Both the position numbers and the translations under genes were made by a program. A model generated the notes under the pieces. It saw only the letters and a list, made by a program, of their open reading frames with translations. It searched no databases and was not told where the DNA came from. A stretch of DNA of 61,759 nucleotides from Desulfobaccales bacterium (GTDB lineage Bacteria; Desulfobacterota; Desulfobaccia; Desulfobaccales; 0-14-0-80-60-11). The stretch covers positions 1-61,759 of the forward strand of contig JAUXZG010000084.1 in the NCBI GenBank assembly GCA_030694005.1. Direction: 5' to 3'. Positions 1 through 57,334 of the stretch are shown here, piece by piece (within the stretch, counting starts at the first letter, position 1; each line of letters opens with the position of its first letter).

Positions 1-24
1 GTAGCTGGTCGAGACTGGTTATCT

Positions 25-915
25 TCATGAGGCTGCCATTTGTGCGTAAGAATCAATGATTTTGGACACCTGACCGGGGGTCAGGCGGCCAAAGGTGTCC
101 TCCCCCACCCGCATGGCCGGAGCCAGAGCGCAACAGCCGATGCACCGCACCACTTCCAGGGTGAAGAGCATATCCTCGGTGGTCTGGCCGTGTTGGATCC
201 CCAATTTCCTTTCCAGTTGGTCCAGCAGGCGGGGTGAGCCTTTGACAAAGCAACCCGTGCCCAGGCAAACATTGATGATATGTTTTCCCCGGGGGGTCAG
301 GCTGAAGGCATTATAGAAACTGGCCACCCGTAAGATTTCCGTCAACGGCACCTTGAGCTCATCCGCCACATGTTCCAGGGAAGCCCGGGGCAGCCAGTTA
401 AAATGCCGGTTGATATCCAGCAAAATGGGCAGCAGGTTGCCGCGCTCGTCCCGGTGGCGGCCGATAATGTCCGCCACCGCGGCTTCCTCGGTGGCCGCCG
501 TATAGGCCGTGCGGGCGCGCGCCTCCTCCTCCGGCAGCTGCACCTCATAACGGATGGGACAGGCGTCCAGGCAGACCCCGCAGCCGGTGCACTTTTCCGG
601 ATTCACATAACGGGGATGCTTCTTAAGGGTAACTTCGAGATTGCCGGGCTCACCCGTAACCTCTTTCAGGTCTGTCAGGGTATGGATTTCGATGTTTGTG
701 TGCCGGCCGACCTCGACCAGTTTGGGGGAGATAATTCACATAGCGCAGTCGTTAGTGGGAAAGGTCTTGTCAATCTGTGCCATGGTGCCGCCGATGGCCG
801 AGCTCTTTTCCACCAGGTGGACATAGTAGCCCGAATTGGCCAGATCCAGCGCGGCCTGCATCCCGGCGATGCCGCCTCCGGCGACCAGTACCGACCCAAG
901 CACTTTTTCGGTCAT
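25..915 (-). CDS. HdrA N-terminal FAD module (selenocysteine-containing) fused to a NuoE-like thioredoxin-fold [2Fe-2S] domain
   Basis: ATG at 915 is preceded by AGGGGG. Fifty-nine codons ([29 protein letters not shown]...[10 protein letters not shown]) run into TGA at 736-738. The same frame then continues [18 protein letters not shown]...[16 protein letters not shown] into track ORF 25-606, which is NuoE-like (CLGTGC...CIGCCALAP). The paralog at 52531-55593 reads TNDCSMCILSPKL, with Cys aligned to the TGA. Confidence 0.75.
703..720 (-). promoter_or_regulatory. Candidate bacterial SECIS hairpin for the TGA at 736-738
   Basis: The minus-strand RNA CUGGUCG-AGGU-CGGCCGG forms a 7-bp stem (2 G-U pairs) with a GGU-containing loop. 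It starts 15 nt after the UGA. Folded by eye only. Confidence 0.45.
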
Positions 916-1374: not shown

Positions 1375-3828
1375 TCACTGCAGGCTATAGTAAGGGGTCC
1401 GGTTGATAAAGATGCGGGAGACCACCCCTTCGCCATTCAGCTCTCTGAGACAGTTGTACGCCTGTTCCTTTTCCACCTCTAGAGCCTGGGCGATGTCGTG
1501 GAGTTGCAACGGCCTGGCTCTCCGCTGCAGCAGGTTGGTGATCCGGGTCCTAAAAAACTCCTCGCTGATGATGTCCGTCAAGGCCTGGTCATAGGCCAGG
1601 GGGTTGGGCATCTGCGAAGGGTAAGTGGTCTCTCCGGGGCAGCGCAGGCTGACCCCCAACACCCAGCGCACCCGGGCGTTATGCAAGGTGTCGTAAGTAG
1701 CCCTGAGCCTATTTAGAGTCGCTTCATCCCTGACGATGGGTCCCAGGCGGTCCATGGTGGCAAGAAAACTCTCCACGGTCCGGACATATTGTTGGGGCTT
1801 GTTCAGATCGCAGTGCGCCAGGGTGATGCGTTCCCTTTCCAAGCCGCATAGAGACAGCAGTTTTTTCAGCAACAAGACCCGGCTCCAGGTATGGTCCAGA
1901 CCGTAACTGTGGTGGCATTCCTCGGGCCGGCAGCCTATGAGTAAAAGACCGTTGGCCCCTTCTAAAAAGGCCCGTCCCATGACCAGGGGGTCAAGCTGGC
2001 CGAGGCATTGCAGCGGCAAGAGGTAAAGCCTGGGGCTGACGGTCAGGCCGCGCAGACCGGCATGGTCCGCGGCCGGGATGCCACTCCACTGGCACCCGAA
2101 ACCGATGACTTCATCGTCGTTGAGCTGCTGCGCCAGGGAAGCTACGGTGGCTTCATGGCGGGCGGTATTGTAAATCTGGGAACTTATGGCCAGATGGGGG
2201 CAGGCCGCGGCGCAGGTGGCGTCCCCCGTGCACACCAGGGGGTCCACTATTCGGGGAGTGCTGCCACCCAAGCCTTCCCACGGTTCGATCGCCCCACAGT
2301 CGCAGATTTCCCGGCAAAGGGTGCAAGAAGTGCACAGGTTCGCGTCCACCTGACAGACATTGAGGACCGCCAGGAGCTTCCCGGCCCTGGCCTTTCCCAA
2401 CAACGCCGCCTTTTTCTTGGCCGTCTGGCGTCCCTGGCGCAGGGCTTCCAGCAAGTCGCAAGGCTGGCGGGCCGAACCCGCGATGGGCAACTTCTCGTCC
2501 AGGGCCACCTCGTGGGGCATGACCATCTGGGGATACCTTTCCAAAAACACGCCTTCGATAACTTTCTTACCCAGAGTGTTGGCCGTCTTGGACGCAGCCG
2601 GACCGATGCGCCAACGGGGCGACAGGACCAGTTGGTCCCAGGGCAGCTCATGCTCCACCTGATCATCAAGACGGGTGAAAGTGAGGTAACCCGACTGGAC
2701 CGAGGGCCGGGTGTTGCCGTCGTAAACAACGAGAGAGATGCCCAGTTCCCGGCCCCGGCGACGCTCTGAAGTACTCAGGGGGAACGAAATCAGGTGGTTA
2801 TACAAAATAGCCATCCGGGCCTGGGGTGAATGCTCCCGGATATAGCTGGCGGTGCGCCAGGCGGCCCGGGCGGAAAGCTGGCCGTAAGGCTGATCCATCT
2901 CCACATCGTTAATCCAGAAAACCAGCCGGTGCTCCGGCGGGCCGTGGAGCCAGATGGACTCCTCCATCTCCCGTTGAGAAAGAACCCGCACCCCATCGTG
3001 GCCGAACTCAGACTCCTGGTCAAGGATCTCGGCGTCCAGGGCGGCGATGATGGTTCCGACCCGGTATTCCTGCGGAGGCTGGTCGGCAAACGAGATGGTG
3101 ACGTGGTATTCTCCCACCCTCCCCAGAACTTTTTCCACCGTGCCGCCGATGATCGTTTGCACCAGGGGGCTGTCGTACACCTCGCCCATAAGCTGCCGGA
3201 GACGGTCGTGGTAATGGCGTTCTCCGGGATAACGCTCATGCAGCCGGCGGAGCTCCTCCTCCATGTCCTTAAAGGGCACCGCGATGATGGTTTTGATCCC
3301 TTGGCGCAAAAGCTCCTGGGCGGCCCCGTAAGTGGCGATGCCCCCGCCCAGAATCATGATGGGTTCGTGAAAATCTATTTTAGTCTCAGAGGGAGTCCCT
3401 ATGGTCCGCAAGCCGGCCAGGGACGCCTTGATCAGCTTGGCCCCTTTCCGGGCCAGGTCGGCCGGCTCCCCAGGGTTTACCTGGGCTACATGGTCCCTCA
3501 GATTGACCATGTCGATCAAGCCTTGTTTGAATCCCAAGCCCTCCAGCTCCTGTTCGAATTTTTTCAGCAGGATGCGGCGTTCACACCCGGCCACCACCAG
3601 GCGATTAAGCTTTTTGCGGGCAATGGCCGCTTTAACTTTCTCCAGGCCGGGTCTTAAGCAGGGGAAAGGCAAGATGCCGATATGGGTAACCACCCCGGGG
3701 TCACGGAGCAGTTTGGCCATGGCCGTTAGGTCAACTTTGGGGGCGATCTTGGGGCCGCACTCGCAGAGAAAGACCCCGCAGCGGACCCCATCAGCCGGTT
3801 TTGGGGGTGATTTTACCGTGTGCATCAT
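1375..3828 (-). CDS. HdrA-like (C-terminal half) / MvhD-like fusion oxidoreductase with a winged-helix-like tail
   Basis: Track ORF 1375-3879. I moved the start to ATG 3828 (GAGGGAGGG Shine-Dalgarno, just after the upstream stop). CGVFLCECGPKIAP matches IGVFVCHCGINIAG of the large HdrA paralog. Also present: a GGGIATYG Rossmann-like motif, two Cys-rich ferredoxin motifs (CTSCTLCREICDC, CTGDATCAAACP), and an MvhD block (VIGFGCQWSG...LLIGCRPEECHHSYG). Confidence 0.8.
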   Translation of the reverse strand: MMHTVKSPPKPADGVRCGVFLCECGPKIAPKVDLTAMAKLLRDPGVVTHIGILPFPCLRPGLEKVKAAIARKKLNRLVVAGCERRILLKKFEQELEGLGFKQGLIDMVNLRDHVAQVNPGEPADLARKGAKLIKASLAGLRTIGTPSETKIDFHEPIMILGGGIATYGAAQELLRQGIKTIIAVPFKDMEEELRRLHERYPGERHYHDRLRQLMGEVYDSPLVQTIIGGTVEKVLGRVGEYHVTISFADQPPQEYRVGTIIAALDAEILDQESEFGHDGVRVLSQREMEESIWLHGPPEHRLVFWINDVEMDQPYGQLSARAAWRTASYIREHSPQARMAILYNHLISFPLSTSERRRGRELGISLVVYDGNTRPSVQSGYLTFTRLDDQVEHELPWDQLVLSPRWRIGPAASKTANTLGKKVIEGVFLERYPQMVMPHEVALDEKLPIAGSARQPCDLLEALRQGRQTAKKKAALLGKARAGKLLAVLNVCQVDANLCTSCTLCREICDCGAIEPWEGLGGSTPRIVDPLVCTGDATCAAACPHLAISSQIYNTARHEATVASLAQQLNDDEVIGFGCQWSGIPAADHAGLRGLTVSPRLYLLPLQCLGQLDPLVMGRAFLEGANGLLLIGCRPEECHHSYGLDHTWSRVLLLKKLLSLCGLERERITLAHCDLNKPQQYVRTVESFLATMDRLGPIVRDEATLNRLRATYDTLHNARVRWVLGVSLRCPGETTYPSQMPNPLAYDQALTDIISEEFFRTRITNLLQRRARPLQLHDIAQALEVEKEQAYNCLRELNGEGVVSRIFINRTPYYSLQ

Positions 3829-3838
3829 TAACCCTCCC

Positions 3839-4477
3839 TCAGTGGGCAAAGCCATGGCCGGTACGCCTGGAGACATCACCCCGCACCAGGTCTAGCCGGG
3901 TGCTCATGGCTCCGGTGGGGCAGACCGTGACACAGCAACCACAGGCGACACAGGCATTGTTAGGGACCCGGTAAGGGGTGTCCAGCTGTTTATTTACCCC
4001 CCGGGAGCCGAAGGTCAGGGCCTGCACCCCCACCACCTCGTTACAGACCGCCACGCAGCGGCCGCAGCGGAGACATTCCTCCTCGGGATCGGTTATGGTA
4101 AAGCGCGTGGCGGTCACCCCATACTCCCGGGCGAGATCCCGGATTTCCTTGGAGGCCGGACAATCAGCCAGGAGCATCTCCAGCACCCACCGCCGCACGT
4201 TTAAAACCCGCTCCGAGTGGGTAAACACCTCGAGTTTTGCTAGGGGCGGGTTGAGACAAGAGGGCATAACCTTGCCCCGTTTGCCATAGCGGACCTCCAC
4301 CACGCACAGGCGGCAGCCCCCCCAGGGCTTGACCGCGGGGTGAAAGCACAGGGTGGGTATGTGGATGTGGTATTGCTCGGCCGTCTCCAGGATGGTCCAG
4401 CCCGGGCGGGCCTGCACCGGCTGGCCGTCGATGGTGAAGTTGATTAAATCATCAGTTTTCTTTTTTTTCGGGCTCAT
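3839..4477 (-). CDS. 2Fe-2S / 4Fe-4S ferredoxin-like protein (NuoG/HndD N-terminal type)
   Basis: Track ORF 3839-4531. The start is set at ATG 4477 (MSPKKKK), which has an AGGAGGTGAA Shine-Dalgarno. Motifs: LCFHP...GGCRLCVVEV...MPSC, then CLRCGRCVAVC and CVACGCCVTVCP. Confidence 0.8.
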   Translation of the reverse strand: MSPKKKKTDDLINFTIDGQPVQARPGWTILETAEQYHIHIPTLCFHPAVKPWGGCRLCVVEVRYGKRGKVMPSCLNPPLAKLEVFTHSERVLNVRRWVLEMLLADCPASKEIRDLAREYGVTATRFTITDPEEECLRCGRCVAVCNEVVGVQALTFGSRGVNKQLDTPYRVPNNACVACGCCVTVCPTGAMSTRLDLVRGDVSRRTGHGFAH

Positions 4478-4488
4478 AAATTCACCTC

Positions 4489-6423
4489 CTACTCCACGAT
4501 AACGGCGCCCACCGGGCACACATCCATGCACGCGCCGCAGCGGATGCAGGCGGCATTATTGATGGTATGGGGCTTCTTTTTCCTGCCGCTGATGCAGTCC
4601 TGAGGACAGTTGCGCACGCACAGGGTGCAGCCGTTACAGGTCTTGGGGTCAACCCGGTAAATAATCAGGTCTTTGCATACCCCGGCGGGGCACTTATGGT
4701 CTTTGATGTGGGCCAGATATTCGTCCCTAAAGTATCTGATACTGGTCAGAACCGGATTGGGGGCGGTCCCCCCGAGACCGCACAAAGACCCGTCCCCGAC
4801 GGCCTGGGCCAGGCTTTTGAGCTCATCGATGTCCTCGACAGAGCCCTGGCCTCTGGAGAACTTGTCCAGGAACTCTTGCATGCCTTTGAGGCCCAGGCGG
4901 CAAGGCAGGCATTTGCCGCAGGACTCCTCCTGGAGAAAGCGCAGGAAGTAGCGGGCCACATCCACTACACAATCCCGGTTGTCCATGACGATCATGCCCC
5001 CCCCGCCCATGATGGACCCGGTCTGAGCCATGGAATCGAAGTCCACCGGGAGTTTCTTGAGCTCAGAGATAGGAACCGGGGCGCTAAGGCCGACGCGGGC
5101 TGGTTTCATATCTGCCGGGGGGAGATCCTTGAATTCGTAGGGGATGATGCCGCCCGAGGGGCCCCCGGTCTGGACCGCCTTGAACCTCTCCTGGCCGGGC
5201 ACGCCGCCACCGATCTCTTCGACGATGCGGCCCAGGGTGACGCCCATGGGCACCTCCACCAACCCGCTGTTTTTCACCTTGCCCACCAGGGAGAAGATCT
5301 TGGTGCCGGTGCTGTAAGGCACCCCCAGGTCGGTGTACCACTTGGCGCCCTTGTCAATGATGTGGGGCACATTGGCCCAGGTCTCCACATTATTAATAAT
5401 CGTGGGGCGGTTCCACAGACCTTGCTGTGCCGGGTAGGGAGGCCGGGTGATGGGCTCGCCCACACGGCCCTCCAGAGAAGCTATAATGGCGGTCTCTTCC
5501 CCACAGACATAGGCTCCTGCCCCGCGGTTGATCTGAAGGTCGAAATCAAAGCCCGTGCCCAGGATGTTTTGCCCCAACAGTCCCAGGGAGCGGGCCTGCT
5601 CGATGGCGATGGACAGGTGCCGGATGGCGATGGGATATTCGTGCCGGACATAGAGGAAACCCTTGTTTGCCCCCAGGGCGTAGGCCCCGATGATCATGCC
5701 TTCCAAAACTGCGTGGGGGTCGCCTTCCATGATGGCCCGGTCCATGAAGGCCCCTGGGTCCCCTTCCTCGCCATTGCCAATGATATAGACGGGCCCCGGA
5801 TTCTCCCGGGCAATATCGGCGGCGCGCCGCCACTTGCGGCCGGTGGGGAACCCGCCGCCACCCCGGCCGCGCAGGCCGGATAACGACACCGTGTTGATGA
5901 TGTCCTCCGGAGACATTTGCGTCAGGGCCTTGGCAAATGACTGGTAGGCTCCGGCCATCAGGGCGTCGTCGATCTTTAACGGATCGATAATCCCCACATT
6001 TTTGAGGATGATCTTCTGCTGCATCTTATAAAAAGGAATCTCGGCGGCGGATTTGTACCTGGCGCCATTGTCGCTGTATAGCAGCCGCTCCACCACCTGC
6101 CCTTTGACCAGACTGGCTTCCACAATTTCTTCAACATCCTCCGGTTTCACCCGGACATAAAACAGATCAGCAGGGGATAAGCTGACTAGGGTCCCCTGAC
6201 TGCAGAAGCCGTGGCAGCCCGTCTCTTTGATCAGGGGCTGGACCTTGGCCCTTAGCTTTTTGGCCTTGATGGTTGATTTAAAAGCCTGGGAAACCATAGC
6301 CGCGCCCTGGGCCAGGCAACCCGGCCCCAGGCACACCCTTACTACCGGCCGCTTAGGGTCTTGGGCCTTGAGCAGCTTTTTTTGCAGGCCGGCGAGTTGT
6401 GCGGCACTTTTGATCCTTTCCAT
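4489..6423 (-). CDS. NuoF/HndC-like NAD(P)H-binding FMN Fe-S flavoprotein with N-terminal thioredoxin-like and C-terminal 2x[4Fe-4S] domains
   Basis: 644-aa ORF. It has GLRGRGGGGFPTGRKW (FMN/NADH site), ESCGKCLPCRLG, and a C-terminal CNGCTLCVRNCP...CIRCGACMDVCP. Confidence 0.9.
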   Translation of the reverse strand: MERIKSAAQLAGLQKKLLKAQDPKRPVVRVCLGPGCLAQGAAMVSQAFKSTIKAKKLRAKVQPLIKETGCHGFCSQGTLVSLSPADLFYVRVKPEDVEEIVEASLVKGQVVERLLYSDNGARYKSAAEIPFYKMQQKIILKNVGIIDPLKIDDALMAGAYQSFAKALTQMSPEDIINTVSLSGLRGRGGGGFPTGRKWRRAADIARENPGPVYIIGNGEEGDPGAFMDRAIMEGDPHAVLEGMIIGAYALGANKGFLYVRHEYPIAIRHLSIAIEQARSLGLLGQNILGTGFDFDLQINRGAGAYVCGEETAIIASLEGRVGEPITRPPYPAQQGLWNRPTIINNVETWANVPHIIDKGAKWYTDLGVPYSTGTKIFSLVGKVKNSGLVEVPMGVTLGRIVEEIGGGVPGQERFKAVQTGGPSGGIIPYEFKDLPPADMKPARVGLSAPVPISELKKLPVDFDSMAQTGSIMGGGGMIVMDNRDCVVDVARYFLRFLQEESCGKCLPCRLGLKGMQEFLDKFSRGQGSVEDIDELKSLAQAVGDGSLCGLGGTAPNPVLTSIRYFRDEYLAHIKDHKCPAGVCKDLIIYRVDPKTCNGCTLCVRNCPQDCISGRKKKPHTINNAACIRCGACMDVCPVGAVIVE

Positions 6424-6450
6424 CTTTTCCTCCTGTGGCCAGGCAGACGA

Positions 6451-6906
6451 TTAGAGTTTTTCCAGGCGCTTCTGCAGCGAAGGGATGGAAGCCGCGCCCA
6501 GGTAATCTTCATCAATCATCACCACCGGGGCCAGGGCACAGGCGCCCACGCATTTGACGGTATCCAGAGTGAAACGCAGGTCTTCGGTGGTGTGGCCCCG
6601 GGCCACGGCCAGGTCCCGTTCACACGCCTCGACGAGACGGCCCCCCCCTTTAAGATGACAGGTGGTGCCCAAGCAGACTTTGATTTCATGTTCCCCTCGG
6701 GGCTCAAGACTGAAGGATTTATAGAAAGTGGCCACGGCCCAAGCCTGGGTTAAGGGGACTCCCACATGGTCACAGATCAACGCCAGGTGCTCCGGGGAAA
6801 TGTATTTATACTCGGCCTGCACATCCTGAAGCAGGCTGATGAGATGTTGGGGCTGCTTCGGATACCTTTCCAGGATGTCGTCGATCTCCAGGGTGGTTGC
6901 TTTCAT
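6451..6906 (-). CDS. NuoE/HndA-like thioredoxin-fold [2Fe-2S] subunit
   Basis: 151-aa ORF with CLGTTCHLKG...CVGACALAPV and the FYKSFSLEPRG motif typical of the 24-kDa subunit family. Confidence 0.9.
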   Translation of the reverse strand: MKATTLEIDDILERYPKQPQHLISLLQDVQAEYKYISPEHLALICDHVGVPLTQAWAVATFYKSFSLEPRGEHEIKVCLGTTCHLKGGGRLVEACERDLAVARGHTTEDLRFTLDTVKCVGACALAPVVMIDEDYLGAASIPSLQKRLEKL

Positions 6907-6964
6907 GCCTTGGCCCTCTCCTTTAAATGATGGGAATAATTTCGGTTTTCAGCAAATAATCCAG

Positions 6965-6979
6965 GCAATAAGCTTACCA
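6965..6979 (-). promoter_or_regulatory. Sigma-54 type -24/-12 promoter for the nuoE-like operon
   Basis: The minus strand reads TGGTAAGCTTATTGC, against the consensus TGGCACG-N4-TTGC. GG-to-GC spacing is correct. It lies about 59 nt upstream of ATG 6906, and a sigma-54 enhancer-binding protein gene sits immediately upstream. Confidence 0.6.
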
Positions 6980-7043
6980 AGTGGTTAACCTGCTGTTTTT
7001 CATGGAAATAAAGATCTCTCAGGAAGAGGCCACTTCGAGGATT

Positions 7044-7074
7044 TGTTTCACAGATGAAACGAACTGAAACAATG
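7044..7074. promoter_or_regulatory. Candidate enhancer (UAS) with TGTTTCA/TGAAACA half-sites
   Basis: TGTTTCA-caga-TGAAACg-aac-TGAAACAATG lies 65-95 nt upstream of the -24/-12 element. The 10-mer TGAAACAATG recurs in inverted orientation at 9213-9222, upstream of the regulator gene. Confidence 0.45.
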
Positions 7075-7150
7075 AGGGCTTTAACTCGCTGATATTATAT
7101 GATTAATTAACTAGAAAAAAAGTTTCTCCTTTTCGGGACATCTTTGGCAC

Positions 7151-7290
7151 ATTAATAGGCTGTTGAAAAACTATCCATTTCTTCAAATTGTCATTCTGAG
7201 CGAAGCGAAGAATCTAGTGAGATTAATAAGTTCTAGATCCTTCATCCGTTCAGGATGACACCCAAACCCGCTTTTCAACAGCCTGTTAAT
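7151..7290. repeat. 140-bp nested inverted-repeat (MITE-like) element
   Basis: Outer inverted repeat: ATTAATAGGCTGTTGAAAAA (7151-7170) against the reverse complement of CTTTTCAACAGCCTGTTAAT (7271-7290), 18/20 matching. Inner imperfect repeat: TGTCATTCTGAGCGAAGCGAAGAATCTAG (7189-7217) against CTAGATCCTTCATCCGTTCAGGATGACA (7233-7260). Confidence 0.6.
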
Positions 7291-7349
7291 CCGGCTTGGT
7301 AGGGGGAGGAAATCTGCTTAAGGAAGAGCTCAGAGGGAAATTTGGCTGG

Positions 7350-9092
7350 TTAGAAGAGCCCGTAGGCCTTCATTTTTCGCCACAGCGAGCTGCGGCTGAT
7401 TCCCAGGGAGCGGGCCGCCGCCTCCCGGCGCCCCCGGGCCTTTTGCAGGGCCTTCTGAATCGTCAGGCGTTCATCTTCCCAAAGGTAGCCGGACTTGCTC
7501 ACCTCCCGAATCAGGGGGAGGTTGGGACCCAGGGTCAAAGATGCTTCCATATCAGGCAGATGGGATTTGGTGATAATCGGCCCTTTGACAAAGACAAAGG
7601 CATATTCCAAAACCCGCTCCAGTTCCCGCACATTCCCCGGCCAGGAATACTTCTGGAACATGGTCATGACTTTGGGGTCCACCCCCCGCACCTCTTTTTT
7701 GTACTTGCGGTTGAGGCGGGCCACGAAATGGTTGACCAGCAGCGGGATATCCTCCACCCGTTCCCTTAAGGGCGGGAGATACAGGGGCACGGTCCGCAGA
7801 CGGTACAAAAGGTCCATGCGGAATCGCCCCTGGCGCACCTCCTGGAGCAGGTTGCGGCTGGTGGCGGCGATCACCCGGGCCTCCAAGGGGATGGGCCGGT
7901 TGCTGCCCACCCGTTCAAAGACCCTTTCCTCCAGGACCCTGAGGAGTTTGGTCTGGAGCTCGGGTTTGAGATCGGCAATTTCGTCCAGAAATAAAGTTCC
8001 ACCTTTGGCCAGCTCCAACCTCCCCACCTTGTGGCTGATGGCCCCGGTAAAAGCGCCTTTCACATGGCCGAACAATTCTGATTCAATCAAGGTCTCAACC
8101 AAAGCCGAACAATTAAAGGCTACGAAGGGCCCCCGGGCCCAGGGGCTTTGCCGGTGAATGGCCAGGGCCAAAAGGTCCTTGCCCGTGCCCGACTCCCCTT
8201 CCAGGACCACCGAGGCCTCAGAGGCAGCCACATCGGGCAGCAGGTCCAGCAACTGCCTTAAGGCGGGATGCTGTCCGATGATCTCCACTTCCCGGGGTGG
8301 CGGCGGCAAATCTGCACCGGGAACCTGCACCCGGGACAGGGGCTTAAAGGTCTGGACCGCCCCGACAATCACTTCTCTGCGGTTCTTGATGGCAGAGCTG
8401 TCAACCAGGATGGTGAGGCGGCGCCCGCCTTTATTGACAATGTGCACGTCCTGGTCCGTGCGGGTCACCCCGTCTTCCAGGGTGGCTTTGAGGAAGCAGC
8501 CGGCTCTGCAGCGGTCGGCTTTGAAGATATCCCAGCAGTATTGGCCCAGGACCTCCTCCCGCCTAAAACCGGTGATTTCCTGGGCCATCTTGTTGAAACC
8601 GGTGATGCGCCGGCGGTTGTTCACCGTGAAGATCCCCCCGGCAAAGTTTTCAAATACCGCTTCGGGGTCGATATCCAGGCCGTTATTGGCCCAGGTGGAC
8701 CAGGCCCTGGTAAGGGTGTTGTCCCTAAAGGTCAGGACGGCGCCGATGATCTTGTCCTCCGGACTATACAGGGGAGCCACCGAGTAGTTAAGGAAGTGGG
8801 TGGCGCCCGATGCCAGGTGGACCTGGGCCATCAGGTTGGCGCGGCTGGTGCCGGCCTTTAGGGCCTCCTTAAGCGCCAACTCAGCCTGGGGGAGATATTG
8901 CTCACCAAAGAGCTGGTCCAGAGGCAAGGTCTGGCCGCGACTCAGTTTTCTCTTGAGGAGTCGTTCGGTTTGGAGGGAGGCGGACAGGATTTGCCGCGAG
9001 GGGGAAATGATCAAGACGCCGTCACCCTCGGGCAGGTCCTCAAAATTGTTGGTTCCCTGGACCATCTGGAACCTTTGGCCTGGAGGTGCCAA
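7350..9092 (-). CDS. Sigma-54-dependent transcriptional activator (PAS-PAS-AAA+-Fis HTH)
   Basis: 580-aa ORF with GESGTGKDLLALAIH (Walker A), the GAFTGA motif (GHVKGAFTGA), and a C-terminal ARSLGISRSSLWRKMKAYGL helix-turn-helix. Confidence 0.92.
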   Translation of the reverse strand: MAPPGQRFQMVQGTNNFEDLPEGDGVLIISPSRQILSASLQTERLLKRKLSRGQTLPLDQLFGEQYLPQAELALKEALKAGTSRANLMAQVHLASGATHFLNYSVAPLYSPEDKIIGAVLTFRDNTLTRAWSTWANNGLDIDPEAVFENFAGGIFTVNNRRRITGFNKMAQEITGFRREEVLGQYCWDIFKADRCRAGCFLKATLEDGVTRTDQDVHIVNKGGRRLTILVDSSAIKNRREVIVGAVQTFKPLSRVQVPGADLPPPPREVEIIGQHPALRQLLDLLPDVAASEASVVLEGESGTGKDLLALAIHRQSPWARGPFVAFNCSALVETLIESELFGHVKGAFTGAISHKVGRLELAKGGTLFLDEIADLKPELQTKLLRVLEERVFERVGSNRPIPLEARVIAATSRNLLQEVRQGRFRMDLLYRLRTVPLYLPPLRERVEDIPLLVNHFVARLNRKYKKEVRGVDPKVMTMFQKYSWPGNVRELERVLEYAFVFVKGPIITKSHLPDMEASLTLGPNLPLIREVSKSGYLWEDERLTIQKALQKARGRREAAARSLGISRSSLWRKMKAYGLF

Positions 9093-19312: not shown

Positions 19313-20170
19313 TTACGCCACCAGGGCCAGATTTTGGAGCAATGGCCGGGGGTCCACCAGGTGGCGGACAAACCACTCCTCGTAATCCTTGGCGCCCAGG
19401 GCCAGGGCCAGAACTTCCGAAAAGTGGAAGACGGGAAGCCTCTCCCTGGAGGTGCAACGGATCTCCAGATTGAGCTGGCACATGGCACAGGCGGTGACCA
19501 GACAATGGGCCTTGGCAGCCACGGCGCTGTCGATGATTTCGTTGACCAGGGGGGTGACTATTTCCGGGTCGGTGGCGGAAAGAAAGGAGCCGCAACAGCG
19601 ATGCGTATAAGCCCCGATGATGGGCTCGGCCCCCAAGGCCACCAGAATATCTTCCATTTCGCCCTGGTAATATTTTTCCTTTTCCAGATCCGGGGGGCGA
19701 AACACGGCACAGCCGTAATAGGGCACAAACTTAAGACCCGTAAGGCTCCGTTTGGCGCTCTGTTTCAGGCGGTCCAATCCGAACCGCACCAGCACCTCCA
19801 TAAAGTGCATGATTTTCAAGTCCAAATTGATCGGCCGTCCCCAACGCTCTTCTAAAGAACGGTGGGTTTCCGGATCCTTCTTGAGACAGACCTTGGCATG
19901 CCGCAAATAATGCAGGCAGCGGGGGCACATGGCCACCAGGGGTCTGCCGGCCGGGGCCAGGGACAGGTTGCGGGCCGCCATTCCCAGGCTTAAATTCTTG
20001 CACATGGTTTGCGCGGAGGAGGAGCCGCAGCAGTTCCAGTCGGAAAGTTCGATGAGGTTCAGGCCCAATATTTTGGCAGACTGCATCAGGGACATATTGG
20101 CTTCCGCGGCCGTAGTGGCCATGGAGCAGCCCGGGAAGTATGAGAAGTCAATCTGGTGGTGAAGGCTCAT
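19313..20170 (-). CDS. hdrB: Heterodisulfide reductase subunit B-like (two CCG domains)
   Basis: 285-aa ORF with FPGCS...NCCGSSSA...YYGCAV...CCGSFL...CAMCQLNLE. Confidence 0.88.
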   Translation of the reverse strand: MSLHHQIDFSYFPGCSMATTAAEANMSLMQSAKILGLNLIELSDWNCCGSSSAQTMCKNLSLGMAARNLSLAPAGRPLVAMCPRCLHYLRHAKVCLKKDPETHRSLEERWGRPINLDLKIMHFMEVLVRFGLDRLKQSAKRSLTGLKFVPYYGCAVFRPPDLEKEKYYQGEMEDILVALGAEPIIGAYTHRCCGSFLSATDPEIVTPLVNEIIDSAVAAKAHCLVTACAMCQLNLEIRCTSRERLPVFHFSEVLALALGAKDYEEWFVRHLVDPRPLLQNLALVA

Positions 20171-20763
20171 TTAGACTCCCTCCAGTAGCACTTGAAAAGG
20201 TCGCCGATCTCTTCTTGGGCTTGCACCCGTGACGGCCTCAGGTCCAGCTTGCGCTTGGCCAGCATCTTGAGACCCACGTCCAGATCACTGAGCCAGCGTC
20301 GGGTTTTCACCTTGTAGCGCCACATGATCCCCAGTTTATGGGCGCGACCGTAACGTTCCAGGGACCTGAGCACTTCCTCGTGGAAGTCAAGGATGTTGGG
20401 CTTGGCTATGGCTACCCCTTCCTCCACCGCCATCAGGCGCAAGGTATCCATCACGGCCGCCATGTCGATGCCCATGGGGCACTGGCTGGAACAGGTATGA
20501 CAGCCTACGCAGATCCAGATGGTTTTACATCTCAGGACTTCCTCCCGCATGCCGAACTGCAGCAGGCGCAGGACCAGGTTGGGAGGATAATCCATGGCCC
20601 GGATGAAAGGACAGCCATTGGCGCAGGCGTGGCACTGATAACACCGATTTAGGTCGGTGCCGCTTTTCTCGATAACCTCGGCCGCCAGAAAACCCCGAGG
20701 TTGGCCAACTTCAATAACCGTCCTGGGGGCGGCCGGTTTTGCCAGGGGGGTGGTTTGGCTCAT
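20167..20763 (-). CDS. hdrC: Heterodisulfide reductase subunit C-like (2x[4Fe-4S])
   Basis: 198-aa ORF with CYQCHACANGCP and CVGCHTCSSQCP. It overlaps hdrB by 4 nt. Confidence 0.85.
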   Translation of the reverse strand: MSQTTPLAKPAAPRTVIEVGQPRGFLAAEVIEKSGTDLNRCYQCHACANGCPFIRAMDYPPNLVLRLLQFGMREEVLRCKTIWICVGCHTCSSQCPMGIDMAAVMDTLRLMAVEEGVAIAKPNILDFHEEVLRSLERYGRAHKLGIMWRYKVKTRRWLSDLDVGLKMLAKRKLDLRPSRVQAQEEIGDLFKCYWRESK

Positions 20764-51217: not shown

Positions 51218-52030
51218 TTACATCGGCTTGGTCTGCAGGGTGGATTCCTCTCCCAAAACCTTCCAGGGAGAAACCGCGGTGGGTGAGCCGGTCTCGTAGT
51301 CGAACAGGTCTTTCACCAGAGCGTTGGCCTTTTTATAGAGCACCCTTAAAGGGATGTCCGCCGGGCAGGCCTCTTCACACAGGCCGCAGTCGATGCAGCG
51401 CCCGGCCATGTGGATGGCCCGCACCAGCTGGAAGATGGTGTCCGGCGGCACCATGCCGGTGCTCATCAAATCCGGGTGCTCCAGGCTGCACTCTTTGCAG
51501 AAGCACATGGGGCAGACGTCCCGGCAGCCGTAACATTTGACGCAGCGCCCAAAATGGCCCAGCCACTCCTTCAAGGCGTCCGCCTCGGCCAGGCCCTCCA
51601 CGCGGGTCACCCGCTGGCTTTGGGGCACCGGCCGGCATTTTTCCCCATAATCAATAACCGAGGGGAAAGGGCCGGAGCATTCGCAATAATCGGCCTGGTC
51701 CTGCGGGCAGGCGACCCCCACCAGGACCACCTGGTCCGGGTCCAACTGCCCCCATTTATACAGCTCGATGAGCCCCCGCTCGTCGCAGCCCCGCACCTGG
51801 ATGGCGAAGGTTTCTTTAGGGTAGCGGGCCGCCACCTGCAGGAGCAGCTTGTCCAGAGGGTAGCGGGCGTCCCCCGGGGGCACGATGGCTTCGTCCACCT
51901 CGCTTAAGCGGTCCTTCGTAAAGAAGTGGGGTAGGGGATGGCCCTCCACCATCTTGTAGCCGATATAGCCGCCGGCCTTGCCTTCCGCCAACAGTTTCCG
52001 GACCTTGTCGCGTAACCTTTCCATGGGCAT
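51218..52030 (-). CDS. 4Fe-4S dicluster protein associated with HdrA/MvhD (AsrA / sulfhydrogenase-beta-like, tentative)
   Basis: 270-aa ORF with CVKCYGCRDVCPMCFCKEC and CIDCGLCEEACP. It is the last gene of the hdrA-mvhD operon. Confidence 0.65.
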   Translation of the reverse strand: MPMERLRDKVRKLLAEGKAGGYIGYKMVEGHPLPHFFTKDRLSEVDEAIVPPGDARYPLDKLLLQVAARYPKETFAIQVRGCDERGLIELYKWGQLDPDQVVLVGVACPQDQADYCECSGPFPSVIDYGEKCRPVPQSQRVTRVEGLAEADALKEWLGHFGRCVKCYGCRDVCPMCFCKECSLEHPDLMSTGMVPPDTIFQLVRAIHMAGRCIDCGLCEEACPADIPLRVLYKKANALVKDLFDYETGSPTAVSPWKVLGEESTLQTKPM

Positions 52031-52062
52031 TTATCCTTTGAGAACTATCTGGGAGTCCTGCT

Positions 52063-52494
52063 TTAAGCCGCCCGGGCCGCCTGTTTCAGGGGGGAGGGGC
52101 CCATTTTCTGGATCTTGGCGGTGAAGTCCCGCACCGTCTGGGCGAATTTGGGGCCTTCGGCGGCGGAGATCCAATCCAGGTGCAGCCTGCCTTCCTCCAT
52201 GCCCACGAACTTCATGAGGTCCTGGAGGAAGCGCATGCGCTTGATGGTCATGTAATTGCCTTTAAGATAATGGCAGTCGCCGATATGGCAGCCGCCGATG
52301 AGGACGCCGTCGGCCCCCTTTTGGAAGGCCCGCAGTACATGGTGCGGCGATACCGACCCGGAGCACATTACCCGGATGACCCGAATGTGGGGAGGGTATT
52401 GCAGACGGCTGACGCCGGCCAGGTCGGCGCCGGCGTAAGTGCACCAGTTACACAGAAATGCCAGGATTCTGGGTTCAAAATTGCTGTCGGCCAT
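52063..52494 (-). CDS. mvhD: MvhD-like hydrogenase/Hdr-associated [2Fe-2S] subunit
   Basis: 143-aa ORF with ILAFLCNWCTYAGADLAG...VMCSGSV...LIGGCHIGDCHY. Confidence 0.9.
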   Translation of the reverse strand: MADSNFEPRILAFLCNWCTYAGADLAGVSRLQYPPHIRVIRVMCSGSVSPHHVLRAFQKGADGVLIGGCHIGDCHYLKGNYMTIKRMRFLQDLMKFVGMEEGRLHLDWISAAEGPKFAQTVRDFTAKIQKMGPSPLKQAARAA

Positions 52495-52530
52495 CTTTCG
52501 TCCCTTGGTTTTTAAGTTGAGTCTTAAGCT

Positions 52531-55500
52531 TTAACCGGCTGCTTCTTCAGAAAGGGCCTGGTCCACTTGCGCATAGATCTGCTTGTGGCTGAACCCTAAC
52601 AGGGTGATGCATTCCGACGGGCAGGTGGCGGCGCAGGTGCCGCACCCCTTGCACAGGGCCTGGTTCACTTCGGCCACAGCCTCGTCTTCCTTGTAGGTAA
52701 TGGCCCCAAAGGGGCAAACCTCCACGCAGGCCTGGCAGCCCGAGCACAGCATGGGGTCCACAATAGCCACCACGCCCCCGGCCCTAATCGACTCCTGGGA
52801 CAGGATCACCGCGGCCCGGGCCGCCGCGGCCTTGGCCTGGGCGATGGACTCGTCAAGGGGTTTGGGGTAATGGGCCAGGCCGGCGACAAACACCCCTTCG
52901 GTGGCGAAATCCACCGGCCTGAGCTTCATATGGGCCTCCAGGAAGAAGCCTTCGTTGTTCAAGGGCACCTTGAACATCTTGGCCAGCTTTTCCTGGTCCT
53001 TGACAATGATGGCGGAGGCCAGGGTCAGGACCTCCGGGTGGATGCTGATGGGCAGGCGCAGGACATGGTCCAGCACGGTCACCTTAAGCCCGCCGTCCGC
53101 GGTCTGTTCCACCTTGGGCTTGCTGTCCAGGTCAAAGCGGATGAACATGACCCCTTTTTCCCGGGCTTCCTTGTAAAGGTTTTCCCGCAGACCGTAGGTG
53201 CGCATATCCCGATAGAGGATATATACGTCCATGTCCGGGTTGAGCTCTTTGAGCTTGACGGCGCTTTCCACCGAGTGGGTGCAGCACACCCGGCTGCAAT
53301 AGGGCCGCTCCGGCTCCCGGGAGCCCACGCACTGGATGAACACCGCGCTCTTGGCCCCCATGACCAGGGGGTTCTTCTCCCGCATGGCCTGATCCATCTC
53401 CAGGGCGAGAAACACCCGGGGATTTTCTTTGTAGAGATATTCCGTGGGCTTGTAGGGATGGCCGCCGATGGCGATGACCGCGGTGCCGTGCTCCACCGCG
53501 GTGTCCCGCCCCTGGGTGGTGACGGTGGACTTGAAATTGCCCACAAAGCCCGTAACCTCGGTGAGTTCGGAGTTGAGGTGCACCTCGATCTTGGGGTGGT
53601 TGGTCACCCTTTTTACCAACTTGTCCACGAAAGGCTTGATGGCCTCCCCGGTCCAGGCGTGGTTGAGCTCCAAGGCGTGGCCGCCCAAGAAGTCCTTTTT
53701 CTCCACCAGATGCACCTTGAAACCCTGGTCGGCCAACCCGAGGGCCGCTTCCATACCCGCCACGCCGCCACCGATGACCAGGCCGACCTTGGTGATGGGC
53801 AGGCTGAACTCCACCAGGGGCTGCTGCAGGGCCACCTTGGAGACGGACATGCGCACCTGGTCCTTGGCCCTCTTGGTGGCGAGCTCGGGCACGTCCATGT
53901 GGACCCAGGAGCCCTGGTCCCGAATGTTGGCCAGCTCAAAGAGGTATCTGTTCAGCCCGGCTTCTCTCAAGGTCTCCTGGAAGAGGGGTTCGTGGGTGCG
54001 GGGCGTACAGGAAGCCACCACCACCCTATTCAGGTGGTGCTCCTTGATGCGCTCCTTGATAAGCTCCTGGGTGTCCTGGGAGCAGGAGAACAGGTTGTTT
54101 TCCACATACTCCACAAAGGGCAGGGTCTTGGCGTAATCCCGCACCGCCTCCACGTCAATGACCCCGGCGATATTGATGCCGCAGTGGCAGACGAAGACGC
54201 CGATGCGCGGCGGTTCCTGGGAAACATCTCGCTCGGGGAATTCCGGTTTTTTGCGGGCCAGGGAAAAGCGGGCCGCGGTAAGAAGTGCGCTGGCCGCCGA
54301 AGCCGAGGCCGACGCCTCCATCACCGACTGGGGGATGTCCTTGGGTCCCTGGAAGGCGCCGCAGACAAAGACGCCGGGGCGGGAGGTGGACACCGGCGTA
54401 AAGGGCGAGGTCTGGGCAAACTTGTTGGTATTCAGGTCCACGCCCAGGGTGCGGGCCAACTCCATAACATCCGGGGAGGTTTCCAAGCCCACGGACAGGA
54501 CCAACATGTCAAAGACTTCATCCTTGATGTTGCCTTCTTCGTCAATATAGCGGATCTGGACATCGTCCGTGCCCGGCACCGGGTCCACGGTGTGGATGCG
54601 GGAGCGCACGAAGCGGACGCCTTGTTCCTCTTCGGCCCGCCAGTAATATTTCTCAAAGTCCTTCCCCATGGTGCGCATGTCCATGAAGAAGATGGTGGCC
54701 TCCAGGCCGTTCTTGCTGTGCTCCTTGGCGATCACCGCCTCTTTGATGGCATACATGCAGCACACCGCGGAACAGTGGCTGTTGTCGCAGCGATGCAGGT
54801 CCCGGGAGCCCACGCACTGGAGCCAGGCAACCTTCTTGGGTTCCTTGTGGTCCGAGGGCCGCACCAGGTGGCCTTCAAAGGGGCCGGAGGCGGACAGGAT
54901 GCGCTCGAACTCCATACTGGTGACGACATTGGGAAAAGCCGTGTAATGATAGGAGGCGTAAGGGGTGGGATCAAATATCTTGAAGCCCGGGGCCAGGATC
55001 ACCGCGCCCACCTGGATGTCCCGCTCTTTGTCCTGGTCGTCGAAGACCACCGCGCCGGTGGGGCAGAACTTTTCGCAGGCCTTGCATTTGCCGCCCTTCT
55101 TGAAGTAAAGGCAGGTGGCGGCATCAATGGCGTATTTGAGCGGCACCGTCTGGGGATACAGCACATAGGCCGATTTCCGGGGGGCCAGGCCCTGGTTGAA
55201 TTCATCGGGCACCTTTTTGGGGCACTTCTGGGCGCAGATGCCGCAGGCGATGCACTTGGCCGGGTCGATATAGCGGGCCGGCTGCTTCACCTTGACGGTA
55301 AAATTGCCCGGCTCGCCGCTGATCCCCTTAACCTGGGCCGGGGCCAGGATTTCGATGTTCAAATGGCGGCCGCATTCCACCAGCTTGGGGGACAGGATGC
55401 ACATGGAACAGTCGTTGGTGGGGAAGGTCTTGTCCAGCGCGGCCATGACCCCGCCGATGCCGGTTTGCTTCTCCACCACATAGACATAGAAACCGGAGTT

Positions 55501-55593
55501 GGCCAGGTCCAGGGCCGCCTGCACTCCGGCGATGCCCGCGCCCACCACCATCACCGCGCCTACGGGTTTACTTCCCTGCTTTTTTGCGCTCAT
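52531..55593 (-). CDS. hdrA: Large HdrA-like FAD/Fe-S oxidoreductase (two tandem HdrA-type modules, C-terminal 2x[4Fe-4S])
   Basis: 1020-aa ORF with [46 protein letters not shown], a second Rossmann motif (VIGGGVAGMEAALGLADQG), and CSGCQACVEVCP...CKGCGTCAATCP. Confidence 0.9.
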   Translation of the reverse strand: MSAKKQGSKPVGAVMVVGAGIAGVQAALDLANSGFYVYVVEKQTGIGGVMAALDKTFPTNDCSMCILSPKLVECGRHLNIEILAPAQVKGISGEPGNFTVKVKQPARYIDPAKCIACGICAQKCPKKVPDEFNQGLAPRKSAYVLYPQTVPLKYAIDAATCLYFKKGGKCKACEKFCPTGAVVFDDQDKERDIQVGAVILAPGFKIFDPTPYASYHYTAFPNVVTSMEFERILSASGPFEGHLVRPSDHKEPKKVAWLQCVGSRDLHRCDNSHCSAVCCMYAIKEAVIAKEHSKNGLEATIFFMDMRTMGKDFEKYYWRAEEEQGVRFVRSRIHTVDPVPGTDDVQIRYIDEEGNIKDEVFDMLVLSVGLETSPDVMELARTLGVDLNTNKFAQTSPFTPVSTSRPGVFVCGAFQGPKDIPQSVMEASASASAASALLTAARFSLARKKPEFPERDVSQEPPRIGVFVCHCGINIAGVIDVEAVRDYAKTLPFVEYVENNLFSCSQDTQELIKERIKEHHLNRVVVASCTPRTHEPLFQETLREAGLNRYLFELANIRDQGSWVHMDVPELATKRAKDQVRMSVSKVALQQPLVEFSLPITKVGLVIGGGVAGMEAALGLADQGFKVHLVEKKDFLGGHALELNHAWTGEAIKPFVDKLVKRVTNHPKIEVHLNSELTEVTGFVGNFKSTVTTQGRDTAVEHGTAVIAIGGHPYKPTEYLYKENPRVFLALEMDQAMREKNPLVMGAKSAVFIQCVGSREPERPYCSRVCCTHSVESAVKLKELNPDMDVYILYRDMRTYGLRENLYKEAREKGVMFIRFDLDSKPKVEQTADGGLKVTVLDHVLRLPISIHPEVLTLASAIIVKDQEKLAKMFKVPLNNEGFFLEAHMKLRPVDFATEGVFVAGLAHYPKPLDESIAQAKAAAARAAVILSQESIRAGGVVAIVDPMLCSGCQACVEVCPFGAITYKEDEAVAEVNQALCKGCGTCAATCPSECITLLGFSHKQIYAQVDQALSEEAAG

Positions 55594-56608: not shown

Positions 56609-57334
56609 ATGTTAGCCATCGAAGACCTCTGGGTGAATATCGACGACAAAGAAGTGCTCAAGGGCATCCAACTGACGGTCCCCTTAGGGGAGACCCACAT
56701 CCTCTTCGGCAAGAACGGCTCCGGCAAATCGTCTTTGCTTATGACCATCATGGGTTTTAGCCGCTACCAGGTAAAGCAGGGGCGGATCCTCTATAAAGGC
56801 GAGGACATCACCCATCTGCCCACCTATGCCCGGGCCCGTCTGGGTTTGGGCCTGTCCTTCCAGCGCCCGCCCACCATTCGGGGCGTGAAGACTGCCGACA
56901 TCCTCATGGCCTGTGCCCATGGCCGCATCTCCCCCCAGGCCCTGGCCGCGGCCTACGATTTTACCCCCTTCCTGGAGCGGGAAATCAACTATGGTTTTTC
57001 CGGGGGGGAAATCAAGCGCTCGGAACTCATGCAATTACTGGCCCAAGACCCGGAGATGGTGCTCTTGGATGAACCGGAATCCGGGGTGGACCTGGAGAAT
57101 TTGCAGGTGGTGGGGGAGATCATCGGCCGCCTGCTCCAGAAGGACCGCCGCCGTCAGCATCGGGAAAAATCCGGACTGATCATCACCCATACCGGCTTCA
57201 TCATGGACTATGTCAATGCCGATCGGGGTTATATTATGTTCGATGGCCGCCTCCTGTGCCACGGCAATCCCCGGGACATACTCCAGGACATCAAAAATTT
57301 CGGCTACGAGGAGTGCAGCAGATGTCTGAGGTAA
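56609..57334 (+). CDS. sufC: Fe-S cluster assembly ATPase SufC
   Basis: 241-aa ORF with MLAIEDLWVNIDDKEVLKGI, GKNGSGKSSLL (Walker A), the FSGGEIKR signature, and LLDEPESGVD. Confidence 0.9.
   Translation: MLAIEDLWVNIDDKEVLKGIQLTVPLGETHILFGKNGSGKSSLLMTIMGFSRYQVKQGRILYKGEDITHLPTYARARLGLGLSFQRPPTIRGVKTADILMACAHGRISPQALAAAYDFTPFLEREINYGFSGGEIKRSELMQLLAQDPEMVLLDEPESGVDLENLQVVGEIIGRLLQKDRRRQHREKSGLIITHTGFIMDYVNADRGYIMFDGRLLCHGNPRDILQDIKNFGYEECSRCLR

Follow-up and report, generated by a model that had tools for sequence, protein, structure and literature searches.

An in-frame UGA in an HdrA–NuoE fusion gene of a Desulfobaccales bacterium almost certainly encodes selenocysteine and has a recoding hairpin of its own

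The DNA considered here, hereafter called the window, comprises the 61,759 nucleotides of contig JAUXZG010000084.1 of a Desulfobaccales bacterium (GenBank assembly GCA_030694005.1). At its very beginning, on the minus strand (915 to 25), lies a gene which opens as a homolog of HdrA and in which the reading frame is interrupted by a UGA at 738–736. This UGA is almost certainly a selenocysteine (Sec) codon equipped with its own recoding hairpin. Taken as a whole the data are best explained, with high confidence on our part, by a single selenoprotein of 296 residues in which the UGA is decoded as Sec by means of a Sec insertion sequence (SECIS).

The frame begins with the ATG at 915–913, which is preceded at a distance of 6 nt by a Shine-Dalgarno-like GGGGG (922–926); most of the orthologs possess a purine-rich AGGG or GGAG at the same distance from the start. 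It runs through 59 sense codons to the TGA at 738–736, continues in the same frame for 43 sense codons containing no ATG, GTG or TTG until a GTG at 606, and remains open to the terminating TGA at 27–25, that is, for 236 codons beyond the internal one, giving a total of 296 codons plus the stop (coding sequence 25–915). The first-pass annotation of this region had described the internal TGA, the sense codons on either side, the ATG and the Shine-Dalgarno sequence, and every one of its coordinates matches the sequence. The UGA (736–738) specifies residue 60 and occupies the second position of a C57-A-M-U60 motif; the codon for Cys57, its CxxU partner, is located at 745–747 in a column which is invariant among the homologs (C60 of homolog P0002). 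The following gene starts with an ATG at 28–26 which overlaps the stop codon as ATGA; its product begins MKITSLDQL and leaves the window (1–28), which extends a mere 24 bases past the stop of the Sec gene.

A mechanically produced list of open reading frames (ORFs) starts this gene at the GTG at 606, 44 codons 3' of the internal TGA, and it had been anticipated that automatic annotation would truncate it. The protein database bears this out. The closest proteins recovered by a protein search are 80–93% identical, measure just 193–237 amino acids, and all start beyond the TGA, two of them (P0032 and P0034) from the same GTG and two others (P0023 and P0033) directly after the TGA. In a related locus (L083) the N-terminal part has been annotated as a 59-amino acid gene of its own. 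Short close relatives which begin 3' of the TGA are the signature of truncation by gene callers. When the window was scanned for further ORFs broken by one TGA, none besides the Sec gene was convincing; a split-ORF candidate at 57070 proved to be an ordinary overlap of ABC ATPase and SufBD-family genes.

A scan of one genome per species returned 529 matching places, the best 80 of which were retained as loci for reading at the DNA level. About 44 loci have TGA at the aligned codon, and 42 have TGC or TGT there. The TGA loci are all from metagenome-assembled genomes (MAGs) labelled Desulfobacca, Desulfobaccales, Syntrophales, Syntrophobacterales, Thermodesulfobacteriota or “delta proteobacterium”, while those of the Cys type include Cloacimonadota, Aminicenantes, WOR-3, Dehalococcoidia, Ignavibacteria, Bacteroidota, Latescibacterota and Actinomycetota. 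The Cys-type homologs are single, uninterrupted ORFs of approximately 300 amino acids with the same architecture and a Cys at the site. The Sec reading put forward in the first-pass annotation is upheld by this alternation of TGA and Cys codons at one aligned position and by four further findings described below: protein-level conservation on both sides of the TGA, a hairpin which is frozen in the TGA-type genes only, the alignment of the codon with a known Sec site of HdrA, and further Sec codons in the same operon of relatives.

Both flanks of the TGA are under purifying selection as protein. Over the 20 codons 5' of the TGA, the number of variable sites among 37 distinct TGA-type sequences is 3 for the first, 3 for the second and 18 for the third codon position, and such third-position-biased variation denotes a translated and constrained sequence. 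The residues directly 3' of the TGA are conserved as [I/V]ISPKLVEVG[R/Q]H. These data bear upon the proposal that the TGA is a true stop, in which case the region would specify a peptide of 59 residues and, from a start of its own at GTG 606, a NuoE-like protein, or else the latter preceded by a dead HdrA remnant. This would agree with the output of the gene callers, and GTG 606 is a possible start codon. In the 43 codons between the TGA and this GTG, however, the protein sequence is kept while synonymous sites vary, and no start codon occurs among them; the first in-frame start 3' of the TGA is found anywhere from 13 to 65 codons away, its position shifting from one relative to another. The 59 upstream codons are under purifying selection as well, and the Cys-type orthologs are continuous ORFs of about 300 amino acids. 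Orthologs which consistently end at this TGA behind unrelated upstream sequence, an outcome that would have spoken for termination, were not what we found: the upstream sequence is conserved. Termination at this codon is accordingly regarded as highly improbable.

The same comparison deals with error and with reassignment. A TGC or TGT misread as TGA might be entertained, since frameshifts are evident in some related MAGs that were assembled from long reads (L006, L014, L032, L038, and the MvhA gene of L083), but the occurrence of the same TGA in about 44 independent assemblies derived from different technologies excludes sequencing error. As to a genome-wide reassignment of TGA, this codon terminates 10 of the 29 long ORFs in the window, the Sec gene itself among them, and being thus a normal stop cannot have been reassigned throughout the genome. 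The chance that either of these accounts for the interruption is negligible.

In a neighbor-joining tree the TGA forms constitute one clade plus a single additional sequence, L042, beside which a small Cys subclade (L026, L027, L031, L033) branches; at least one switch between Sec and Cys has therefore taken place inside the group. L042 (6001–6834) belongs to a MAG shared with L018 and represents a second TGA-type fusion gene which is grouped with the Cys forms in the tree, has an identical hairpin, and whose NuoE part seems to continue into NuoF. These features point to an exchange between Sec and Cys, or to gene conversion, among members of the group. Locus L018 itself contains a 655-nt duplication (1227–1881 and 5685–6338; 94% identity) which takes in the TGA and hairpin and consists of approximately 320 nt of upstream sequence plus the first 110 or so codons. 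The second copy heads an hdrA which ends after about 150 codons, beside MvhG-like and MvhA-like genes; the duplication could have been left behind by recombination, or could have arisen during assembly.

The position of the UGA is that of a known Sec site. HdrA figures among the catalogued selenoprotein families of the CxxU type (COG1148) (PMC9312934), and Sec-containing HdrA is frequent in Deltaproteobacteria, with seven copies in Syntrophobacter fumaroxidans and four in Syntrophus aciditrophicus, the related orders being among the most Sec-rich bacteria known (PMC1794560). In the cryo-electron microscopy map of Methanococcus maripaludis Hdr, Sec197 has been observed, its density being read as a Cys-Sec bond and a possible electron relay from flavin adenine dinucleotide (FAD) to cluster A3, with the role called unresolved (PMC13518236). 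Where this residue is a Cys, Cys197 has been described as a ligand contributed by one HdrA protomer to the [4Fe-4S] cluster of the other's N-terminal domain, and in fused double HdrAs Cys197 and the N-terminal domain are present in a complementary fashion (PMC9012536). Alignment to Sec- and Cys-containing HdrA sequences, advised in the first-pass annotation, places our codon on the X (Sec) of KTFPTDDCAMXILAPKM in PDB 9sfi_A and on Cys197 of 5odc_A. The gene shows the hallmark of the HdrA selenoproteins: UGA takes the place of the second Cys codon of the CxxC motif, where homologs (here the 42 Cys-type orthologs) have Cys. As the earlier reading had stated, the family with Sec at this position is established: for methanogens a Sec in this motif of HdrA is textbook knowledge, in Deltaproteobacteria it is well catalogued, and the present gene is a mis-annotated addition.

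The likeness to HdrA extends over both sides of the TGA, as previously noted, and includes the site itself. Residues 4–122 (550–906) comprise an FAD-binding beta-alpha-beta segment with a GxGxxG motif (862–879), the CxxU motif, a beta-meander and a first CxxCxxCxxxCP motif. They are 60% identical to residues 9–127 of the window's own 1020-amino acid HdrA (52531–55593, minus strand), whose Cys-containing motif had been correctly read as the counterpart of the TGA-containing one. Residues 8–123 match positions ca. 145–260 of five solved HdrA sequences with E values from 3.8e-44 to 6e-34. Pfam recognizes FAD_oxidored and NAD_binding_8 at residues 8–50, and Fer4 at 103–120; the [4Fe-4S] motif, C109-x2-C112-x2-C115-x3-C119-P120 (556–591), has its four Cys and the Pro invariant in the alignment. 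Beyond this point comes a NuoE/HydC/BfuC-type thioredoxin-like [2Fe-2S] domain, residues 148–290 (46–474), which matches PF01257 (2Fe-2S_thioredx) with an E value of 2e-47 over profile positions 2–144 of 145, i.e. as a complete domain, and in which the ligand residues C217, C222, C258 and C262 are invariant among the aligned homologs.

A structure was predicted for the Cys homolog P0002, which is 74% identical to the window protein. The model (mean predicted local distance difference test score 76, below 50 in the motif loop at residues 51–59; predicted template modelling score 0.35) separates the two domains, and completion of the HdrA fragment is not visible in it. Foldseek searches with the C-terminal domain gave as best matches the C subunits of the bifurcating enzymes HydABC, NiFe-HydABCSL (49% identity), NfnABC and WOR-Bfu; the N-terminal 114 residues matched HdrA at 56–58% identity. 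Since the likeness to HdrA ends at about residue 120 and the sequence beyond is NuoE-like, this is not a whole HdrA gene, and the full TrxR-like domain with inserted and C-terminal ferredoxin domains is not found within this one polypeptide. The product joins an N-terminal HdrA segment of some 120 residues to a [2Fe-2S] domain of the NuoE/HydC type; the earlier designation “HdrA-like gene” holds for the former and fails for the remainder.

The hairpin which the first-pass annotation had placed 15 nt downstream of the TGA was confirmed at 703–720. It is a predicted bacterial SECIS with a 7-bp stem (CUGGUCG/CGGCCGG) and the apical loop AGGU, the loop beginning 22 nt past the UGA, and its folding energy is -9.1 kcal/mol alone and -10.2 kcal/mol with flanking sequence. 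Throughout the TGA clade the 18 bases CTGGTCGAGGTCGGCCGG are unchanged save for one substitution, a G to A in L001 and L025 which converts a U-G pair of the stem to U-A; outside the hairpin the pairwise nucleotide identity of the TGA-type sequences ranges from 64 to 98%. All six third-codon positions within the hairpin are invariant, versus 2 of 53 in the flanking codons (Fisher p = 6e-7; 37 sequences). In the Cys-type genes none of the same six positions is invariant, and many synonymous codons are used. The hairpin is under selection as RNA, beyond the needs of the protein.

The published model of bacterial SECIS elements (PMC13188914, Fig. 2) calls for a loop of 3–9 nt, a stem of 4–16 bp, a minimum free energy of -7.5 kcal/mol or lower, 16–37 nt between the UGA and the apical loop, and a G at the first or second base of the loop (or at both), the next base being as a rule G or U. 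Compared with this model, the hairpin agrees in every structural respect. It lies inside the ORF and 3' of the in-frame UGA; the 4-nt loop reads A-G-G-U, with a G within the first two positions; the stem has 7 bp; the spacer of 15 nt plus the 7-nt arm of the stem amount to 22 nt; and the energy is -9.1 to -10.2 kcal/mol. With the fdhF-type SECIS of E. coli (the consensus of Zhang and Gladyshev, in PMC13188914) it has in common its location as a hairpin within the coding sequence 3' of the UGA and a small GG/GU loop, but it is unrelated in sequence and has no evident bulged U, and the binding of SelB is predicted here.

Further evidence is provided by the genes that follow in the relatives. By the tree the nearest relative is L002, at 82% identity; the product of the next gene in that locus starts MKITSLEQL, where the window has MKITSLDQL, and is NuoF/HydB-like, with Complex1_51K and NADH_4Fe-4S domains and two Fer4 motifs. 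A NuoF/HydB-type flavin mononucleotide-binding subunit is therefore adjacent to the Sec gene, as judged from the start at 28 in the window and the L002 ortholog. The third gene of L002 (1086 amino acids) encodes a NuoG-like [2Fe-2S]/[4Fe-4S] N-terminus and then the remaining HdrA, which is colinear with residues ca. 110–1014 of the window's 1020-amino acid HdrA (49% identity). It contributes what remains of the TrxR-like domain of module 1, together with an internal domain of the N-terminal type (VGVFVCNCGLNIGG) and another HdrA module which lacks the CxxC motif, a layout which conforms to the complementary pattern described for fused HdrAs (PMC9012536). The order HdrA_N::NuoE, NuoF-like, NuoG_N::HdrA_C is kept in every related locus which reaches that far, in the Sec and Cys clades alike. 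This three-gene split-HdrA order spans many phyla (L001–L080, e.g. L002:6001–12064), positions 1–915 of the window corresponding to the first gene only. In some relatives, such as L083 (10644–13811), the NuoF-like subunit is longer, at 1055 amino acids, and has an extra GltD/NfnB-like NAD(P)H-binding C-terminus (Fer4_20, Pyr_redox_2); such an extension probably explains the gaps of 1.4–3 kb between the NuoF and third genes in several loci.

In the Sec clade the next genes specify MvhD, a 65-amino acid ORF product, and the small (MvhG) and large (MvhA) subunits of a [NiFe] hydrogenase. MvhD has a TGA at G-U-HxGxCHY in 18 Sec-clade loci, including L002:12346, L003:12334, L007:9164 and L083:17362; in L083 this gene has been broken by gene callers into fragments of 67 and 48 amino acids. 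MvhA possesses the C-terminal Sec site DP-U-xxC (RAYDP-TGA-LSC, of the [NiFeSe] type) in L018:4798 and L083:20297, the L083 copy carrying an assembly frameshift besides. The Cys-type loci have TGC or TGT at the MvhD and MvhA sites. Sec codons at known sites in MvhD and MvhA, switching along with the HdrA codon, constitute strong indirect evidence that the relatives decode Sec. We also observed a Cloacimonadota MAG (L067) in which the fusion gene is of the Cys type and yet an MvhD located upstream of the operon has TGA at the Sec position (L067:168).

Several results weigh against the Sec interpretation. A 76-nt segment folds no better than shuffled sequences (z = +1.15), and the hairpin is small. 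RNAalifold detected no compensatory covariation, the single change being that of U-G to U-A; this is because the stem is (nearly) invariant, and selection on the RNA was tested by the freezing of synonymous sites in place of covariation. Rfam gave no SECIS match: at the gathering threshold the whole window yielded two tRNAs only, and a search of 640–780 with E values up to 10 gave only chance matches to snoRNAs. The Sec-decoding machinery, which it had been suggested should be sought, was absent from the window and from 38 related loci. ARAGORN found no tRNA-Sec in the window or in these 38 Sec-clade loci, which is to be expected since selC need not be linked, and Pfam and NCBIfam scans identified no selA, selB or selD among the 36 window ORFs; those of SelA- or SelB-like size turned out to be an asparagine-tRNA ligase and an adenylate/guanylate cyclase. 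Lastly, the operon is cut by the edge of the window, and its partner subunits are known from relatives alone: the series of Sec-HdrA, Sec-MvhD, small subunit and Sec large subunit was seen in the latter, and its counterparts here lie beyond the edge.

The lack of covariation and of Sec machinery in the window would be compatible with the UGA being read through by a standard tRNA (a Trp or Cys near-cognate, or a suppressor) without selenium, the hairpin merely slowing the ribosome or stimulating read-through. The codon is, however, the established Sec site of HdrA (PMC9312934; PMC13518236), the hairpin conforms to the bacterial SECIS model throughout (PMC13188914), the relatives carry TGA at the Sec sites of MvhD and [NiFeSe] MvhA where Cys-type orthologs have TGC or TGT, and the related orders are exceptionally rich in Sec (PMC1794560). 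We consider read-through of this kind very unlikely, and retain Sec as the meaning of the codon.

The sequence of events at this codon can be envisaged as follows. The mRNA hairpin 720–703 would serve as the SECIS, bringing SelB-GTP-Sec-tRNA(Sec) into competition with release factor 2, and the UGA at 738–736 would be translated as Sec60 to give the full-length HdrA_N::NuoE protein.

Three known systems are instructive in considering what this protein might do. The first is the HdrA of Methanococcales, with Sec197 in M. maripaludis (PDB 9sfi) and Cys197 in M. thermolithotrophicus/M. wolfeii (5odc). The same domain segment of about 115 residues is involved (E values of about 1e-39 to 1e-44), the motif DKTFPTxDCxM-U/C is held in common, and Sec falls on the same aligned residue. 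The window polypeptide differs in covering only the equivalent of residues ca. 145–260, its SECIS is of the bacterial type and inside the coding sequence where that of archaea is in the 3' untranslated region, and no HdrBC genes adjoin it.

The second comprises the (glpC-)hdrA-frhD-frhG-frhA selenoprotein operons of Deltaproteobacteria, which include an “hdrA_N-unknown-hdrA_C” variant (Zhang et al. 2006, PMC1794560). Our relatives share with these the order HdrA_N(U), intervening gene, HdrA_C, MvhD/FrhD(U), small subunit and [NiFeSe] large subunit(U), and belong to the same lineages (Syntrophobacterales and allies). The intervening gene, “unknown” in that study, is NuoF-like here, the HdrA halves are fused to NuoE-like and NuoG-N-like parts, and L083 has no glpC upstream. 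Judging by the published description of gene order, equivalence to the S. fumaroxidans hdrA_N variant is likely. Apart from the 2006 remark on “hdrA_N-unknown-hdrA_C” we found no description of HdrA_N::NuoE or NuoG_N::HdrA_C fusions in the papers searched, and the fusion context of this selenoprotein has hardly been described before.

The third, BamEFGHI (Bam-Bfu) of class II benzoyl-CoA reductase, is the closest characterized analogue of the assembly as a whole. In it a HydCBA-like confurcating module is wired to a fused double HdrA by a Sec-MvhD-like adaptor (bioRxiv 10.64898/2026.04.10.717634; PMC9304861), and two bifurcation modules in series were reported for this reductase in 2026. BamE, the fused double HdrA, displays a Cys59-Cys62 disulfide in one of its conformational states (bioRxiv 10.64898/2026.04.10.717634). 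Both assemblies draw on one set of modules (NuoE/F/G-like, double HdrA and Sec-MvhD), and the first TrxR domain of BamE, like ours, has no N-terminal domain and has a CxxC pair near residue 60; going by the published description this Cys59-Cys62 pair is presumed to be equivalent to C57-U60, being Cys-Cys there and Cys-Sec here. The two assemblies differ in that the Bam subunits are separate, whereas in the present case HdrA has been divided and its parts joined to the NuoE-like and NuoG-like subunits, and in that the output partner is not BamBC/BamD but an Mvh-type [NiFeSe] hydrogenase.

In the relatives HdrA is split around a NuoE-NuoF-NuoG (Bfu/HydCBA-like) module. Since it is divided over two genes it would have to be reassembled from two polypeptides, with one FAD domain put together from the products of the first and third genes. 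On the basis of the published structures, Sec60 could act either as a ligand of the [4Fe-4S] cluster in a partner's N-terminal domain or in a Cys-Sec relay between FAD and a cluster. The whole complex would probably be an electron-bifurcating or -confurcating enzyme linked to H2, NAD(P)H and ferredoxin. We tentatively suggest, as a possibility which we do not favor strongly, that the gene specifies the first subunit of a widespread, uncharacterized split-HdrA/Bfu/[NiFeSe] hydrogenase with two bifurcation modules in series. Were this true, the split-HdrA enzyme of Desulfobacterota would hold up to three selenocysteines, U60 would form a selenenylsulfide switch between FAD and an Fe-S cluster, and a Bfu-type NuoE-NuoF-NuoG module would sit inside a fused double HdrA coupled to an Mvh-type [NiFeSe] hydrogenase, two polypeptides together forming the bifurcating flavin domain of HdrA and its ferredoxin insert.

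The window contains further genes of related function. Directly upstream of the Sec gene, on the same strand, is a paralogous NuoE/NuoF/NuoG-N/HdrA-MvhD set (1375–9092) consisting of a sigma-54 activator with PAS domains (7350–9092), NuoE (6451–6906), NuoF (4489–6423), a NuoG-N-like 2Fe-2S/4Fe-4S protein (3839–4531) and an 834-amino acid protein whose HdrA-like body is followed by a C-terminal MvhD domain (1375–3879). L002 has the same upstream set, as far as that locus reaches, on the opposite strand. A conserved -24/-12 sigma-54 element, sought because of the adjoining activator, was not found upstream of the Sec gene. A Cys-type HdrA cluster occupies 51218–55593 of the minus strand. It is made up of the 1020-amino acid fused double HdrA already mentioned (52531–55593), in which module 1 possesses the CxxC motif but lacks an N-terminal domain and module 2 shows the reverse, an MvhD with the sequence GCHIGDCHY (52063–52494), and a 270-amino acid protein without a Pfam match (51218–52030). 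An HdrB-like protein with two CCG domains is encoded at 19313–20170 on the minus strand, with the ORF 20167–20763 adjoining it, and small ORFs nearby may encode HdrC-like proteins; this gene and its neighbors are possible partners for one HdrA system.

The outcome of this analysis is an annotation correction within a known selenoprotein family, and no new kind of biology. In public data the gene and dozens of its orthologs have been mis-annotated: a shortened “NADH-quinone oxidoreductase subunit E” is recorded, in some cases with a 59-amino acid fragment beside it and in others by itself. A corrected annotation gives the protein back its redox-active CxxU site. Other such genes can be searched for by their signature, a TGA followed after 15 nt by CTGGTCGAGGTCGGCCGG. 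The correction enlarges the selenoproteome of Desulfobaccales and Syntrophales-type bacteria, and the conserved operon points to a purifiable hydrogenase-HdrA-NuoEF complex, which would be useful in addressing the role of Sec at position 197 of HdrA (PMC13518236).

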